This document shows positions 45,784 through 57,527 of a stretch of DNA of 64,000 bases, piece after piece. The notes beneath the pieces were generated by a model. The model was not told where the DNA came from. It made no database searches and saw only the letters and a list, made by a program, of their open reading frames with translations. Position numbers and translations under genes: made by a program. The stretch is from assembly GCA_965205485.1 (NCBI GenBank), contig OZ242180.1:1472001-1536000 (forward strand), written 5' to 3'. Source of the DNA: Candidatus Latescibacterota bacterium. Its GTDB lineage: Bacteria; Latescibacterota; UBA2968; GCA-2709665. The first letter of the stretch is position 1. Each line of letters begins with the position of its first letter.

Positions 45784-46785
45784 TTAAAATGGTAGCTCCG
45801 AGTCATCCAAATATCGATTTTCGTAAGCCGATTGCCCATCCAACGTAAATTTCACGGTATAGCTTTCTGGATGAGCTAGATTTGACAAATCAAGAGACAA
45901 CGTACCGCTGGCGTGGAAGTCATTCTTCTCCCATCCATAAATCTCCTTTGACTTTGTCTCTGTCAGTTCTATCTTCGCGTGAAAAGGACCCGTTATCTCT
46001 GATGGATTGAAACTGAACGCGTTGGAGGAAATACTGAGATCAGCTTTTTCCAAAAAGGGCCATTTTCCGAAAAACAGCATTGATCTTCTACTGACTCCTA
46101 TGTGTCTTGACCACTTGCGTCGCACTTTCCAGGGAAGCGAATAAATCAAAGTCTCAAATTCGGCCTGCGACCGACAACTGATCAGCTTTAAAGCGGATAG
46201 ATCAATATAGTTCGGGACTATAACTTCAGCGTGTCGATGATAGATAATTTCGCGCTTTTCACTTTCACTCAATCCCCACAAACTACGATCATGGTATATC
46301 TTCTCAAAGGGGAGCGATTGAAAGTACCCAGCAGTGTTTCCTGCATCTGCGCCAGAAGCCAGATTTCCAACGCTAAACATGGTTTCCGGTCTTGTCAGAA
46401 TTGATTCGGCGTCGAAAATAAAACCAACGGGTACGGGGCAGTGAGCATTCATTTCCCGCTGACCTACTGGTCTGAAACCCTCATTTATGTACTGTGTCGG
46501 TGTCCGCGGACGAAAATATAGGCGCACATACTCTTTCCACCGAGGCTGTGTAGTTGAAATGACTTCCGGGCTTGCAATGTCCGTAACCAATCCCCCAGTG
46601 CGTTCTAACTCAGCACGGGACACCAATTTGCCGTCGCCGAGAATCTTCACAGCATTGGTCAAATCAGTAATATGAAAAAGGTGGCCTGGCCACCAACGTT
46701 GTGATTCCCGTAACCATGCCTGCTCCTTGAGTGACCGAAAATGAGCGACGATTTTCTCTGCATTTTGTTTTAACGGCTTCGTCAT
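45784..46785 (-). CDS. darT: DarT ssDNA ADP-ribosyltransferase toxin (DUF4433) with C-terminal extension
   Basis: FHITDLTNAVKIL..GKLVSR, YVRLYFRPRTPTQY, FSVGNLAS and AEVIVP (putative catalytic Glu). ATGA overlap with the upstream macrodomain gene. Confidence 0.85.
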   Translation of the reverse strand: MTKPLKQNAEKIVAHFRSLKEQAWLRESQRWWPGHLFHITDLTNAVKILGDGKLVSRAELERTGGLVTDIASPEVISTTQPRWKEYVRLYFRPRTPTQYINEGFRPVGQREMNAHCPVPVGFIFDAESILTRPETMFSVGNLASGADAGNTAGYFQSLPFEKIYHDRSLWGLSESEKREIIYHRHAEVIVPNYIDLSALKLISCRSQAEFETLIYSLPWKVRRKWSRHIGVSRRSMLFFGKWPFLEKADLSISSNAFSFNPSEITGPFHAKIELTETKSKEIYGWEKNDFHASGTLSLDLSNLAHPESYTVKFTLDGQSAYENRYLDDSELPF

Positions 46786-47711
46786 ACTGGCTTAAGCTCA
46801 AAGGGAAACTTCTCGAATAACTTGGGAGGAATTGCTTGAGGTACTATTTGAAGGCCAATGCTTTGGCCTGAACTCAATGCCCAATAGTTATTACTGGCTG
46901 ACACCGACCGACAATAGGGCAATTCCGAAAAAAGTGCCACGATCTGATTCGAGATTATATCTAATCCTGCGGGCATTATCCCGGGAATTACAAATCCGCA
47001 ATTCCGTATAGTAGTCCACAATTCGATCAGTTCTTCTTTTGGGATGAAGGTTTTCTTGTCGTCTATATAAAAACAGATTCCCTGCTCATCGAGTTCCGAG
47101 GCAATTTTAACGTGGAAGATCTCGTGATCAAAGGAAGCACGTAACTCTAAGCCTGAACCGATCAATTCAGTCAAATCCTTCCAGACCTCGACAAATCCTA
47201 AAGATTCGAGATCGGACCGTAGCCAACTCGCCACAGCCCTTATGTCTCTGTGTTCAGGGACTTGTGGGTCCTGTCTATACAGGTGAATAAAAATGTCAAT
47301 AGGTAGCTTCCTCAGGTAATTCTCCATCAGTGGTTGCACCTGTCGATCCCAGTCCAATTCACCGTTACCACATCCTAAAGGCGGAAAAGCTACGCTGGTT
47401 ATACCACGTTTCGCATATTCTCTTACGAATGTGTTTAGACCACTTTCGATGTATTGAATTTCCGAAGGTTTGCGCCAAGTTGTCTTGGTGGGAAAATTAA
47501 GGATCCATTTGTTTGAAGTCTTATAGAGCCAGAGCTTACCCACGGTAAGCCGTTTCGTTTCGCAGTGTTTTTGATATTCGCGAAACATCTCAGGGTATAT
47601 CCGCTTAAAATCCTTCGCGATTCCTTTGCCCATGACCCCTACGGTATTGACCGTATTCACAAGAACCCTAGCCGGAGATTCGAACAAATCTCCTAATACG
47701 TAGGTAATCAT
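46782..47711 (-). CDS. darG: DarG macrodomain antitoxin (ADP-ribosyl glycohydrolase)
   Basis: GDLFES...LVNTVNTVGVMGKGIA..FK..YPEMF, ILNFPTK..WR and AFPPLGCGNGELDW. Confidence 0.9.
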   Translation of the reverse strand: MITYVLGDLFESPARVLVNTVNTVGVMGKGIAKDFKRIYPEMFREYQKHCETKRLTVGKLWLYKTSNKWILNFPTKTTWRKPSEIQYIESGLNTFVREYAKRGITSVAFPPLGCGNGELDWDRQVQPLMENYLRKLPIDIFIHLYRQDPQVPEHRDIRAVASWLRSDLESLGFVEVWKDLTELIGSGLELRASFDHEIFHVKIASELDEQGICFYIDDKKTFIPKEELIELWTTIRNCGFVIPGIMPAGLDIISNQIVALFSELPYCRSVSASNNYWALSSGQSIGLQIVPQAIPPKLFEKFPFELKPV

Positions 47712-54258: not shown

Positions 54259-54936
54259 TCAGATGTCAAACTCGACGCTGAGCCGCCCGGGGAGCGCGAG
54301 CCACCTTGCGTCGCCGCCCGCGAAGCCCAGGAGGTGGGTGTTGCCGGGCACGTCGTTTGCGCCCAGCCCTTTTTCAACAACGACGGTGTGGGGATCGCGC
54401 TCCAGGAATTGACCCAGGCGTTCTTCGAGGTACTCCGGAGTTCGAAGGATGCAGGCGCCGGTCAGTTCGGCAGCTGGCAGGTCGAGCAGGTGGTCGACAT
54501 TCCAGTGCAGGTACTTTTGGCCGGTGGGCGTCAGGTTCCCGTTTCCAAGACCGACGGACTTGAATCGCCGGAGCATTTCGACCCGGATGCCATGAGGTCG
54601 CTTCCCGCCGCTTCGGGTGGCGTGGCGGACAAGCCGGTTGGCCAGCGACGCGGCGCCTCTCTTCGCCATCGCCGACCCGACGTAGGTGTACTCTCCCGCC
54701 GGAAGCTCAATGGTCTCTCCGCGCTTGAATCCGCCGAAAGAGAGTGCCGCCGTCTCCGCGAGATGGATTCGCAATATATACGACCCACCCTGCGATTCGC
54801 CGCCCAGGAAGACGAGAGAGGAAGCCTTCGGATTCTCGTCAAGCGTTTTACTATTGCTGCACACGTTGGAACGCCGGACATTTACGAGTCGGCACGCAAA
54901 GAACTCCTCAATTCGGCGTGCTTTCCAGCCTCCCAT
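54259..54936 (-). CDS. DUF123 / GIY-YIG (Uri superfamily) endonuclease-like protein; start uncertain
   Basis: GSYILRI, GEYTYVGSAM, RLVRH and LHWNVDHLL. Confidence 0.78.
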   Translation of the reverse strand: MGGWKARRIEEFFACRLVNVRRSNVCSNSKTLDENPKASSLVFLGGESQGGSYILRIHLAETAALSFGGFKRGETIELPAGEYTYVGSAMAKRGAASLANRLVRHATRSGGKRPHGIRVEMLRRFKSVGLGNGNLTPTGQKYLHWNVDHLLDLPAAELTGACILRTPEYLEERLGQFLERDPHTVVVEKGLGANDVPGNTHLLGFAGGDARWLALPGRLSVEFDI

Positions 54937-56036
54937 GCCTGATAGTCATCCGGTGCATGCCAGAATTCCTTCCACGCGGAGTTCAGGATCTCGACAATTG
55001 GTGCCATTGCGTCCGAATTTGCTGTCACCACACCCGTACCTTTCACTCCCTCTTTTGTCGTGGAGACGATGCTCAATAACAACGCTTCGGGGTAACACTG
55101 ACGGTATTCGGGTTCTACTTTGTAGCCCATTATGTCAACGTAATCACGCCAAGCCGCATCGATTAGCTTCACTTCCCCGTCGAAGCCGTTCGCGGTCAGC
55201 ATCAACTCCATCGCACGCATACGTGCATCGTCGGCCGGGTGCGTAGATACAAACTTCACGGGAGTCTCAAAGGGGTCGCCACCGCGTTGAATACAAAGGT
55301 GATAGTGTGACCACGCATACGCCGGCCCCGCCTCAAGGACCCCGAACAGGTCGCAGTAGAATTCCTGCATCCAGTATTTGACCCAGCATGTTCGCCAAAG
55401 TTGGAGTTGGTAGAGCTTACCTGCTGGCTCACGTACGGTTTCAGCATTCACAATACAATCGTGGAAGTGCCTCACGGCATCAAAAAGGCTCCGTTCGAAA
55501 GCAACATGGTAAGCCTTGAGAAGTGGCAAATCGGCATTTTGCTCACGGTGAAACAGATGGCAGAGTTCGTGATATATGTCCGGGAGGTGTAGTAGAAATC
55601 TACTTTCAACCAACGGCAGACATAGTAGTAGATTGAAGTTGAGGTATATTTGGAAATAGTCCTGAGAAATGTGACTGACGACTGGAGGAATTAGCGGGTA
55701 ATTGATTTCGCGACAAACATCCGTAATCAAGCGGTTAAGGAAGTCGTCATCGTGGCTTACTCTGCTCAGGGCAAAAGCACCAACGTTTTCGACTGTTTCC
55801 AGCTGTTCTACGATTCGCGCGAATTCCCTCACACGTCGTGGTGTCTGTAGTTCTCTAGTGACTACCGTCTCTTCGGCTAAGCACTGGAGCAATTCCTGTG
55901 CGGCGTCTAGATGCGTCAGACAAATCTGACGTAAGCCGTCGTATTCTCGTCGGTACGTTCCATGTACAATCTGGCGCAAATGCCGTATTCGTTGCAGAGA
56001 TTGGTTGATAGATCCGACGAGATAGGCTTCGATCAT
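54882..56036 (-). CDS. Cytoplasmic HExxH zinc metallopeptidase-like protein (M48/gluzincin-like)
   Basis: YHELCHLFH, then EFYCD (ExxxD) and STHPADDAR. No signal peptide. ATG overlaps the upstream stop (TGATG). Confidence 0.7.
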   Translation of the reverse strand: MIEAYLVGSINQSLQRIRHLRQIVHGTYRREYDGLRQICLTHLDAAQELLQCLAEETVVTRELQTPRRVREFARIVEQLETVENVGAFALSRVSHDDDFLNRLITDVCREINYPLIPPVVSHISQDYFQIYLNFNLLLCLPLVESRFLLHLPDIYHELCHLFHREQNADLPLLKAYHVAFERSLFDAVRHFHDCIVNAETVREPAGKLYQLQLWRTCWVKYWMQEFYCDLFGVLEAGPAYAWSHYHLCIQRGGDPFETPVKFVSTHPADDARMRAMELMLTANGFDGEVKLIDAAWRDYVDIMGYKVEPEYRQCYPEALLLSIVSTTKEGVKGTGVVTANSDAMAPIVEILNSAWKEFWHAPDDYQAWEAGKHAELRSSLRADS

Positions 56037-56407
56037 CAACGCCTCCGGAGTCGGCGCGCAATTTCAGCCCTCTCTCGCTCCAGTCTCTGAGCAAGCGTTT
56101 CTAGCTGCCTATTAAAGCTGGCATCGACTTCACCGCTTAGTAGGTATTCTCCGAGGCGTTTCAAATCTATGCCGTTGAAGGGCTCGCCTGTATTTGACCG
56201 GAGAATGCTGTCCAGCGTCAAAGCCTCAAGGGACTTAGATTTTAGACCCTGGTCGTTTGTATTAATGAGAAGCTGGCCCAGCCTCTTCTGATCCCGATCC
56301 GGGGAACCGCTCTGTACCCGACCCAGCCGTGCAATTACCCTGTCTATCAGGCCGCCGTATGTCTCCACATCGGCGTAAACTCCCCTCAACAAACTCAGAT
56401 CGCTCAT
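56036..56407 (-). CDS. Hypothetical 123-aa helical protein
   Basis: GGAGG RBS. ATGA overlap with the Argonaute-remnant stop and TGATG overlap with the downstream gene. Confidence 0.75.
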   Translation of the reverse strand: MSDLSLLRGVYADVETYGGLIDRVIARLGRVQSGSPDRDQKRLGQLLINTNDQGLKSKSLEALTLDSILRSNTGEPFNGIDLKRLGEYLLSGEVDASFNRQLETLAQRLERERAEIARRLRRR

Positions 56408-56703
56408 TTTACCAGTTCCTCCTGATGATGGACATTGGCTGAATTAACAGCGTCCTTATCGTATTCCGCAGCTTCGTCGAATAGGCTGCGATCGCAAGGC
56501 TTGATCGAAACCGGCAGCCGAGTGGCGCCCTCCGGCCGAGTCCACGTCAGACAGCTAAGAGAGAAAACATCTGAAAGTCACTGTTGGAGGGGCATTTCAC
56601 CAACCGCGTGTCGGACATGTAGTGGACTGGAAGTTCCCGGAATCCAAAATGGTCTTCCGGTTGTACACACGAATCCCTCGTTTGGAGTGGTTTCTGTCCA
56701 AGA
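56404..56703 (-). pseudogene. C-terminal PIWI-domain fragment of a prokaryotic Argonaute
   Basis: One frame reads SWTETTPNEGFVCTTGRPFWIPGTSSPLHVRHAVGEMPLQQ*LSDVFSLSCLTWTRPEGATRLPVSIKPCDRSLFDEAAEYDKDAVNSANVHHQEELVK*. TTG..GTxxPL, L(S/T)xLxW and RLPV(S/T)I..D appear in PIWI order and spacing. Confidence 0.75.
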
Positions 56704-56759
56704 TACCATTTCCGTTGGCACTGGCGAAACGAACGGCTTGCTGAATATGACCACCTCAC
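56703..56759 (-). pseudogene. N-terminal stub of a PD-(D/E)XK / Cas4-AddB-like nuclease
   Basis: GTG overlapping the XRE stop (GTGA) reads MRWSYSASRSFRQCQRKWY, matching the S.S....F..C.R.WY start of PDDEXK_1/Cas4-like nucleases. Confidence 0.65.
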
Positions 56760-57118
56760 TGTCGTCCTCGCCTTCTCGACCGGATGAATTGCAGGTATTC
56801 GAGTAGCGCATCCTCTTCTTCCACTGTAACTGTTCCAATGCGAGCAGCGAAGCTGGAGATAGATGCCTGTCCTTCGGCCGATCGATCACCAGGCACCGGA
56901 TAACCGGCCAACTCCATCAATAATTCGTATGGTACACGATAGAGTTCGGCAAGCTTGTGCAAGTTCTGCGGTGCCGGCGTCTTTATCTTACCGTGTTCCA
57001 ACTGGCTCAGATAAGCGTTGGAGATCCCGGTCTTCGTCTCTACAGCCCGGAGCGTCAAATCGAGTTTATTTCGAGCCGATGCAAGAAAGGTCCCCAGATT
57101 TGATTCTGACTGTTCCAT
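56756..57118 (-). CDS. XRE-family HTH transcriptional regulator
   Basis: LGTFLASARNKLDLTLRAVETKTGISNAYLSQLEHGK...LMELAGY, with C-terminal EEEDALLEYLQFIRSR. Confidence 0.92.
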   Translation of the reverse strand: MEQSESNLGTFLASARNKLDLTLRAVETKTGISNAYLSQLEHGKIKTPAPQNLHKLAELYRVPYELLMELAGYPVPGDRSAEGQASISSFAARIGTVTVEEEDALLEYLQFIRSRRRGRQ

Positions 57119-57154
57119 ATTGCTAAATCTACTTAACTTTGCTAATTTTGTCAA
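57119..57154 (-). promoter_or_regulatory. Sigma70 promoter for a probably leaderless XRE transcript, overlapped by a TTAGCAA direct repeat (candidate operator)
   Basis: TTGACA(57154-57149)-N17-TAGATT(57131-57126)-N7-ATG. TTGCTAA at 57120-57126 and 57139-57145. Confidence 0.65.
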
Positions 57155-57242
57155 GCAGAATGAACAAAAAAGATTATCGTGTACGCATCGAGCAAGGCAA
57201 CAACTTCCAGTATAGGACTGATTGCCAGGATTGTGGGGTCAT

Positions 57243-57306
57243 CTATGCGGCCGATATTTCTGCAAGCAGGTCGTCTCCCGCACCTCAATTCGACCGAGAG
57301 TGTCAT
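57243..57306 (-). pseudogene. Possible collapsed remnant of a DUF5615/VapC45-like PIN toxin
   Basis: ATGA-coupled start MTLSVE (one base from MTLWV) and, in another frame, AGDDLLAEISAA*. These resemble the first and last residues of the usual DUF433 partner (from recall). Confidence 0.4.
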
Positions 57307-57527
57307 GCAGCGAGAACCGGGTGATTTAGGCGATCGATCGCAAAACGAAGACAGGCACGAATGTCCTCGAGCTCAAGGTCCGGATGCTCAGCCAGAATCT
57401 GTTCCCGGGTGAGATCATGAACAAGCAGATTCAGCACATCAGTGACGCGAATGCGCATGCCGCGTATACAGGGACGCCCCCCGCACTGTTTTGGATTTAC
57501 CGTGATACGGTCCATCAGGGTCGCCAT
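57303..57527 (-). CDS. DUF433 antitoxin-like protein
   Basis: RITVNPKQCGGRPCIRGMRIRVTDVL...ILAEHPDLELEDIRACL. AGGAG RBS. Confidence 0.93.
   Translation of the reverse strand: MATLMDRITVNPKQCGGRPCIRGMRIRVTDVLNLLVHDLTREQILAEHPDLELEDIRACLRFAIDRLNHPVLAA

Follow-up and report, generated by a model that had tools for sequence, protein, structure and literature searches.

A Latescibacterota locus is a deletion relic of a PliAgo-group Argonaute operon and retains intact genes for a regulator, a small helical protein and a putative zinc peptidase

Results

Identification of the relic

We analyzed a stretch of 64,000 nt, hereafter the window, from Candidatus Latescibacterota bacterium (GCA_965205485.1, contig OZ242180.1, positions 1,472,001-1,536,000; genome label G000). 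One minus-strand locus in the window can be identified with near certainty as the deletion relic of a PliAgo-group operon, in which the gene for an XRE-family regulator is followed by genes for an ACE2 nuclease, a D-R prokaryotic Argonaute (pAgo, or Ago), a 123-aa helical protein and a 384-aa HExxH protein, the last two of which are called SMALL and PEP throughout. Of that operon, the XRE-SMALL-PEP cassette and its promoter remain intact, and the locus is a broken member of a known operon that carries an undescribed, near-universal gene pair. The features of the locus are as follows.

57140-57157, minus strand: putative operator 1, an 18-bp imperfect palindrome over the -35 box TTGACA (57154-57149)
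57121-57138, minus strand: a further, weaker palindrome across the -10 box (57131-57126)
56756-57118, minus strand: XRE-family repressor, 120 aa from ATG 57118, intact (Pfam HTH_3, E = 2e-11; PADLOC capH, E = 4e-6)
56703-56759, minus strand: nuclease remnant, the first 19 codons of an ACE2/Cas4-like PD-(D/E)XK nuclease (PDLC02406, E = 9e-8)
56702-56703, minus strand: deletion junction, placed by the BLAST break against intact loci
56404-56702, minus strand: Ago remnant, a pseudogene of the last ~98 codons of a PliAgo-group pAgo, the end of PIWI (PDLC02382, E = 1e-38)
56036-56407, minus strand: SMALL, 123 aa, soluble, helical, intact, with AGGAGG at 56423-56418 (155 relatives)
54882-56036, minus strand: PEP, 384-aa predicted zinc metallopeptidase, intact, with the motifs HExxH (55571-55557), ExxxD (55364-55350) and HPxxxxR (55241-55221)

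The original prediction had taken this locus for what is left of a pAgo defence operon, with a metallopeptidase and a small helical protein encoded alongside, and both the remnants and the intact relatives support this view. All three of the stop/start overlaps that it listed were found (GTGA at 56759-56756, ATGA at 56407-56404, TGATG at 56038-56034), as was the AT-richer islet, with a GC content of 0.512 over 54882-57160 as compared to 0.599 for the genome. The nuclease-like start that it had placed after the XRE gene matches the PADLOC model Aga_Cas4-like_Nuc (PDLC02406) at model positions 1-22 and shares 79% identity with the first 19 residues of the L033 nuclease, which is intact at 313 aa. 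With the internal stop read as X, the translation of 56703-56404 matched PADLOC pAgo_II (PDLC02382) at positions 689-778 of 782, but the proposed similarity to Pfam Piwi was not recovered; that model matches the Ago of an intact relative (E = 1e-8). The Ago remnant is 69% identical to residues 695-792 of the L033 Ago, has no in-frame start of its own and contains a TGA at 56580-56578.

The nuclease start and the Ago frame had been thought to be joined near 56703. The junction there is real, but the two pieces meet at 56703/56702 out of frame, and the nuclease frame then reads on, out of register, until it stops at 56547. The deletion amounts to ~2.95 kb (2,951 nt relative to L024, 2,954 nt relative to L033). 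Contigs of X1 and X4 (two samples from one study) and of X6 (another study) span the junction, which rules out an assembly artefact; the X6 contig differs from the window at 66 positions in 1,067 nt, with no gap. One base at 56709 is absent from the X1 and X4 contigs relative to the window and is present in X6, and by arithmetic neither version brings the pieces into frame. An in-frame nuclease-Ago fusion was rejected, since the pieces are out of register and the Ago piece holds a stop.

A tblastn search of G000 recovered no other part of the operon, including no full-length pAgo with a DEDD tetrad, which rules out an intact copy elsewhere in the genome. The predicted coupling of an Argonaute to a proteolytic output can therefore not operate in the present genome. 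The sequencing runs listed for the locus include no RNA dataset.

The five-gene operon in relatives

Scans with a PEP alignment yielded 67 genome loci and 71 metagenome loci, of which 125 remained after 13 duplicates had been dropped; 79 of these have at least 4.3 kb of upstream sequence. The gene profiles used for the counts were built from these same loci. Of the 79 loci, 76 carry SMALL upstream of PEP, 73 carry some Ago (near-complete in 62), 60 the nuclease and 68 XRE. All five genes are intact in 51 loci, across many phyla, which is an outcome that the original prediction had named as support; the record titles of the PEP loci include Latescibacterota, Poribacteria, Chloroflexota, Planctomycetota, Acidobacteriota, Proteobacteria, Cyanobacteria and one archaeon.

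In a search that started from the Argonaute, SMALL and PEP follow 18 of 18 D-R pAgos, five of these loci having also been found through PEP. This set comprises eight genomes besides G000 among 168 of the phylum, four, zero and one (the four being non-centre genomes) in three samples of 401 genomes each, and five plasmids on which the match covers at least 78%; a further nine plasmid records, whose distant pAgos reach at most 60% coverage, lie outside the count. The Planctomycetota sample (401 genomes searched) held no Ago beyond the centre genome. The SMALL matches in the group with a sigma-70 factor are weak (E = 5e-4 to 8e-4). Among 72,556 plasmids, PEP matches only the five records that hold these pAgos, and none of 71 pattern matches in viral contigs was confirmed. 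Pairwise distances of Ago, SMALL and PEP correlate at 0.92-0.95, as is also expected from co-inheritance, and L042 contains one Ago-SMALL fusion frame, possibly due to a sequencing indel. All five genes are present on a plasmid of Runella slithyformis DSM 19594, a locus that we presume to be that of RslAgo.

Some loci depart from this layout. Five Dehalococcoidia loci (L061, L064, L065, L069, L073) have the order XRE-Ago-SMALL-PEP with no nuclease gene detected. In L090 (5974-12783, minus strand), XRE and nuclease genes are followed by a more distant pAgo split by an insertion, a divergent 148-aa SMALL-like gene and PEP, possibly representing a third subclade. In the sigma-70 group (L175, L176, L185, L186), a sixth gene between the sigma factor and the nuclease encodes a 180-200-aa XRE-HTH-like protein (HTH, helix-turn-helix), which is not named in the text of PMC9360449 available to us. 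On two Bacteroidota plasmids that are unrelated to each other (L172:9220-11399, L175:1-2400), the D-R pAgo operon has genes for Multiubiquitin, ThiF and DUF6527 as neighbors.

The Argonaute and nuclease of the group

The intact Ago of L024 matches PDB 7R8F, which is PliAgo (PMC9360449), over residues 2-784 (E = 5e-220). The DEDD catalytic tetrad is complete in 67 of 70 Ago sequences and DEQD in three (L077, L137, L140), in which Q takes the place of D at the third catalytic position (HRQG); L077, titled archaeon, carries a SMALL-sized frame too diverged for the profile. The tetrad rules out a long-B or inactive-sensor reading, so the guide-sensing Argonaute of the original prediction does not hold in that sense. 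Candidate columns for the MID-pocket RHSY residues, as assigned by us, hold R in 54, H in 65, T in 42 or S in 18, and Y in 65 of 65 sequences. The nucleases of relatives are ~313 aa long and keep a cysteine, PD, DWK and three C-terminal cysteines in 53-55 of 55 sequences. By description only, they fit the ACE2 nucleases of PMC12094033 (one N-terminal and three C-terminal Cys, PD...DxK), which names APACE2, uncharacterized there and without downstream genes in the part available to us.

The combination of genes had been thought to be uncharacterized. This holds for SMALL and PEP, which are unnamed in the literature covered, but not for the core: a regulator, a nuclease and a pAgo, with a sigma factor in a second group, have been described for the PliAgo group (PMC9360449; PADLOC pAgo class II). 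The relatives share with it the order HTH regulator, PD-(D/E)XK nuclease, pAgo and the DEDD tetrad; in the window the remnant pAgo, the intact XRE and the 19-codon nuclease remnant fit membership, while the full-length DEDD pAgo has been deleted. The running text of PMC9360449, as distinct from its Fig. 1b, names three genes, without SMALL and PEP. In the literature on Argonautes with peptidase, protease, HExxH or APACE2, mostly outside subscription journals and seen in part, the SMALL-PEP pair was not described, nor was any catalytically active Argonaute with a protease arm. The text of PMC6299218 (without Tables S2/S3), PMC13346755, PMC9122594 and PMC13104665, as far as available, holds no relevant passage on a protease or operon of the PliAgo group. 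The long-B pAgo systems (BPAN, BPAS, BPAM; PMC13535254) likewise co-encode a pAgo with accessory proteins; however, their pAgos are reported there to be catalytically dead, whereas the PliAgo-group relatives keep DEDD.

PEP and SMALL

Six PEP residues (H156, E157, H160, E225, H266, P267) are invariant in 111 diverse sequences and form a gluzincin-type set; the full motif set is present in 110 of these, and HExxH with the downstream Glu ligand in all 111. PEP is predicted to be a zinc protease. Its model (predicted local distance difference test, pLDDT, 86.6) consists of an N-terminal three-helix bundle (residues 1-93) and a helical core, and the protein has no membrane segment. The window PEP has no Pfam match, and the hints within the family are weak and below cut-off (Peptidase_M78 in 5 of 111 members, best E = 8e-4; M48 in 1 of 111, E = 0.008). 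No NCBIfam family is common to more than one of the 111 members, the model matched nothing in the PDB and viral fold libraries at E <= 0.001, and searching PDB sequences with PEP profiles yielded nothing beyond coiled-coil noise. Among named Atlas clusters, the nearest are annotated as U49 or M48 on 12-25% of their members (score 0.79-0.80), which is a lead only. PEP resembles the M48 and U49 (Lit) gluzincins in its HExxH, ExxxD and downstream HP..R, the last of which we take to be like the M48 pattern, but it falls below every family cut-off and is without a membrane segment.

The PEP profile reaches 954 cluster representatives at E <= 0.001 and 258 at 1e-30, most of them without context. Fusions of PEP to CHAT were seen in P0245 (E = 4e-9) and, below cut-off, in P0267 (E = 2e-4). 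In an Acidobacteriota locus (L054), PEP is fused to a second HExxH domain that matches the model of a CBASS effector peptidase (E = 6e-13); PEP proteins of ~780-800 aa with a second HExxH domain and a C-terminal helical domain occur in L054, L060, L066, L111, L113, L115 and P0271.

By E-value, SMALL has no meaningful match among the Pfam, NCBIfam and PADLOC families, and it gave no usable Atlas match. It has no transmembrane segment, its AlphaFold2 model (pLDDT 84.8) shows five helices, and a fold search returned only generic helical bundles (best Z 8.8, root-mean-square deviation 3.2, 101 aligned). SMALL is unlikely to be an enzyme, since M1 is the only invariant residue in 59 sequences. A co-fold of Ago residues 335-795, PEP and SMALL, with SMALL as the scored chain, gave 0.78 for the complex, as compared to 0.00-0.01 with unrelated partners and 0.79 in a control with Ago replaced; this single job is used neither for nor against binding.

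A conserved operator over the promoter

The XRE gene had been predicted to start at 57154, but the TTG there is the conserved -35 box, and ATG 57118 is the most likely start. The regulator has no sensor domain, and R-x-G and E..L..YL.F.R in its C-terminal part are kept in at least 90% of 40 sequences. The palindrome GCT-N10-WGC precedes 67 of 74 XRE genes (200 shuffles: mean 6.0, maximum 12), and a half-site overlaps the -35 box upstream of XRE in 69 of 74 loci. Operator 1 is the top-scoring site in G000 for a profile built from relatives, and the two operators form the best paired site in that genome (score 35.8; next 21.1). A regulon of paired operators in G000 was ruled out, none comparable having been found; single, unpaired matches were observed at G000:C1 821394 (20.4) and 4644415 (19.0), the own site scoring 21.6. 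The ATG lies within a few bases after the -10-box site and is probably a leaderless start. This layout suggests an autorepressed, leaderless repressor gene, with XRE as the predicted ligand of the palindromes. An XRE-like HTH protein is also kept in the sigma-70 group (hhalign 78%, E = 2e-5, 69 columns).

Cassettes that have lost the Argonaute

Five junction types (window, L013, L017/L027, L026, L044) remove the nuclease and Ago and leave XRE, SMALL and PEP whole. All five deletions stop within the final ~300 nt of the Ago gene or where that gene ends, and none inside SMALL. The L013 junction could be nested in that of the window, and a contig joint in sequencing-run data hints at a sixth type. 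The conserved operator and the at least five different deletions that remove the nuclease and Ago yet spare SMALL are new here, and the deletion series hints that the SMALL-PEP pair may be separable from the Argonaute.

L017 and L027 share one junction, and their cassettes are separated by a synonymous divergence (dS) of 0.02-0.05, as compared to 0.28 and 0.33 for flanking genes and 0.08 for gltA. Because the cassette is far closer than its flanks, a recent exchange between species is suggested. The two differ in SMALL and PEP by seven synonymous and four non-synonymous changes (p = 0.008-0.04), a modest indication of selection on the cassette after Ago loss. The cassette in the window is a mosaic, with XRE closest to L017 and SMALL and PEP closest to L013. 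At conserved columns, the PEP and SMALL proteins of Ago-less cassettes show no excess of deviations over their counterparts from intact operons (8 of 135 for PEP in the window, as compared to 0-13 in intact loci). Insertions were also found in Ago (L019, L022, L090) and the nuclease (L014, L022, L035).

The pair also occurs in loci where no XRE, nuclease or Ago was detected. L016 holds only a close SMALL-PEP pair behind a Menshen system, and L089 (5873-10966, minus strand) a distant pair located 53 nt behind an insertion-split Mrr-STAND/NACHT gene; the SMALL-like gene of this pair is 69% and the PEP gene 67% identical to its counterpart in L090.

Neighboring genes

The site of the locus is orthologous within the genus, with an ankyrin gene upstream and DUF123 downstream. 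A DUF433 gene (57303-57527, minus strand; E = 1e-23) lies just upstream of the operon promoter; it has no obvious partner gene and is only partly matched in L017/L027. Elsewhere in the window (45784-47711), a low-GC island without a match in the same-genus loci L017 and L027 carries convergent genes for DarT (Pfam, E = 5e-19) and a Macro-domain DarG-like protein (E = 4e-20).

Discussion

A proposed latent protease arm

We tentatively favor the reading, with a probability of roughly 0.4, that XRE, SMALL and PEP form a repressed effector module in which SMALL holds a latent protease off. In the intact operon, the nuclease would probably make short DNA guides from invading DNA, as the authors of PMC9360449 also speculate, and the Argonaute would cut RNA that matches them. 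XRE would repress the operon via the two palindromes over the promoter. SMALL and PEP would be a second arm, in the order regulator, inhibitor, toxin: PEP may be a zinc protease that SMALL keeps latent, and an infection that depletes or displaces SMALL would release it, with arrest of the cell or destruction of a phage protein as the outcome. Such an arm could survive the deletion of the nuclease and Ago because it needs no guide. In favor of this reading stand the linkage seen from both the PEP and the Ago side, the repeated removal of nuclease and Ago with XRE kept, and the conserved columns of PEP and SMALL in Ago-less cassettes. An effector-type role of PEP is favored by the fusions to CHAT and to a CBASS effector peptidase, by the Mrr-STAND and Menshen contexts and by slicing without the pair: PliAgo and RslAgo perform DNA-guided RNA cleavage, and the purified proteins, made in E. 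coli without SMALL and PEP, are active (PMC9360449). The same paper leaves open what such DNA-guided, RNA-cutting pAgos do in nature.

The gene order regulator, small helical protein, enzyme is reminiscent of omega-epsilon-zeta, a three-component module of regulator, antitoxin and toxin. A bolder version, which we consider rather unlikely, treats XRE-SMALL-PEP as a protease defence module in its own right, portable and from a family without a name, with the slicing Argonaute and its nuclease as a removable sensor arm. Such a module could be attached to other sensors, such as Mrr-STAND in L089, and in intact operons Ago activity or sabotage would lead to proteolytic arrest.

Several observations weigh against a retained protease module. 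The loci were mostly found via PEP, which favors loci that retain it. Matches in VIA fold searches were filled by the N-terminal bundle (1-93) and did not reach the core of PEP. The dead Ago remnant of the window has a ratio of non-synonymous to synonymous divergence (dN/dS) of 0.15 relative to L014, most of the divergence predating the deletions, and the chimera in L017/L027 also has 0.15, on six changes; because the dead remnant is equally low, a low ratio is no proof of selection after the loss. In the L017/L027 pair XRE has a dN/dS of 0.56, and between the window and X6 the 15 listed differences at the end of PEP (a hand count on a partial list) fall 5/5/5 over codon positions, which looks relaxed. 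Decayed cassettes occur in L032, L087 and L088, PEP is broken by insertions in L036 and L063, and the pairs in L016 and L089 may be mere neighbors in defence islands.

Alternative explanations

PEP might instead act as an inducer in the manner of CapP/CapH, IrrE/DdrO and ImmA/ImmR. On a signal such as single-stranded DNA or cut RNA, it would cleave the C-terminal helices of XRE and derepress the operon, with SMALL as a gate, and the cassette in the window would be a switch without a target. These systems also pair, in a defence operon, an XRE protein that has C-terminal helices with an HExxH...E peptidase, and here a repressor-type site lies over the promoter, at the -35 box in 67-69 of 74 loci. 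The sensor-less XRE matches capH (E = 4e-6), and a conserved Arg (R-x-G) stands at the start of its C-terminal part; CapP cleaves CapH at Phe82-Arg83 (10.1101/2022.04.27.489752). Retention of XRE in all five junction types, the XRE-like protein of the sigma-70 group and Peptidase_M78 as the commonest Pfam hint for PEP point in the same direction. However, PEP differs in its 384-aa length, N-terminal bundle, extra HPxxxxR and position last in the operon, nearly always after SMALL, and its model, a three-helix bundle with a helical core, is not the peptidase-HTH-GAF layout reported for CapP. The pair occurs without a detected XRE in L016, L088 and L089, the fusions to CHAT and an effector peptidase fit an output role better, and an inducer would hardly be expected to last after the loss of its targets, no comparable paired operator having been found elsewhere in G000. 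We regard this explanation as unlikely, though a serious one.

A second alternative is that SMALL bridges a target-bound Argonaute to PEP and so converts RNA recognition into proteolysis, the Ago-less cassettes being recent, decaying leftovers. The Ago-first linkage in 18 of 18 loci, the overlapping stop and start codons, the correlated Ago-SMALL-PEP distances (0.92-0.95), the fusion frame in L042 and the decayed cassettes would all be expected. Yet Ago has been lost repeatedly with the pair intact, the same junction persists in a strain ~6% diverged (X6), the Argonaute actively slices RNA in vitro without a partner, and the pair also adjoins other defence genes, which leaves this explanation improbable. 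That PEP matures or recycles the Argonaute or nuclease, or is no protease at all, with the window locus as inert debris, would agree with the lack of a structural peptidase match and the weak family matches, but it is very improbable given the six invariant gluzincin-type residues, the activity of PliAgo and RslAgo made in E. coli without PEP, and the intact promoter, XRE, SMALL and PEP in the window.

Implications

Studies of these Argonautes have treated the Argonautes alone, as far as the available text of PMC9360449 indicates. If two near-universal partner genes were left out, the working unit would be a five-gene operon, or one of six genes in the sigma-70 group, for which the plasmid operon of Runella slithyformis DSM 19594 offers a ready test system. 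The relic in the window would then belong to a natural deletion series that points to XRE-SMALL-PEP as a separable unit and provides an operator that can be assayed.

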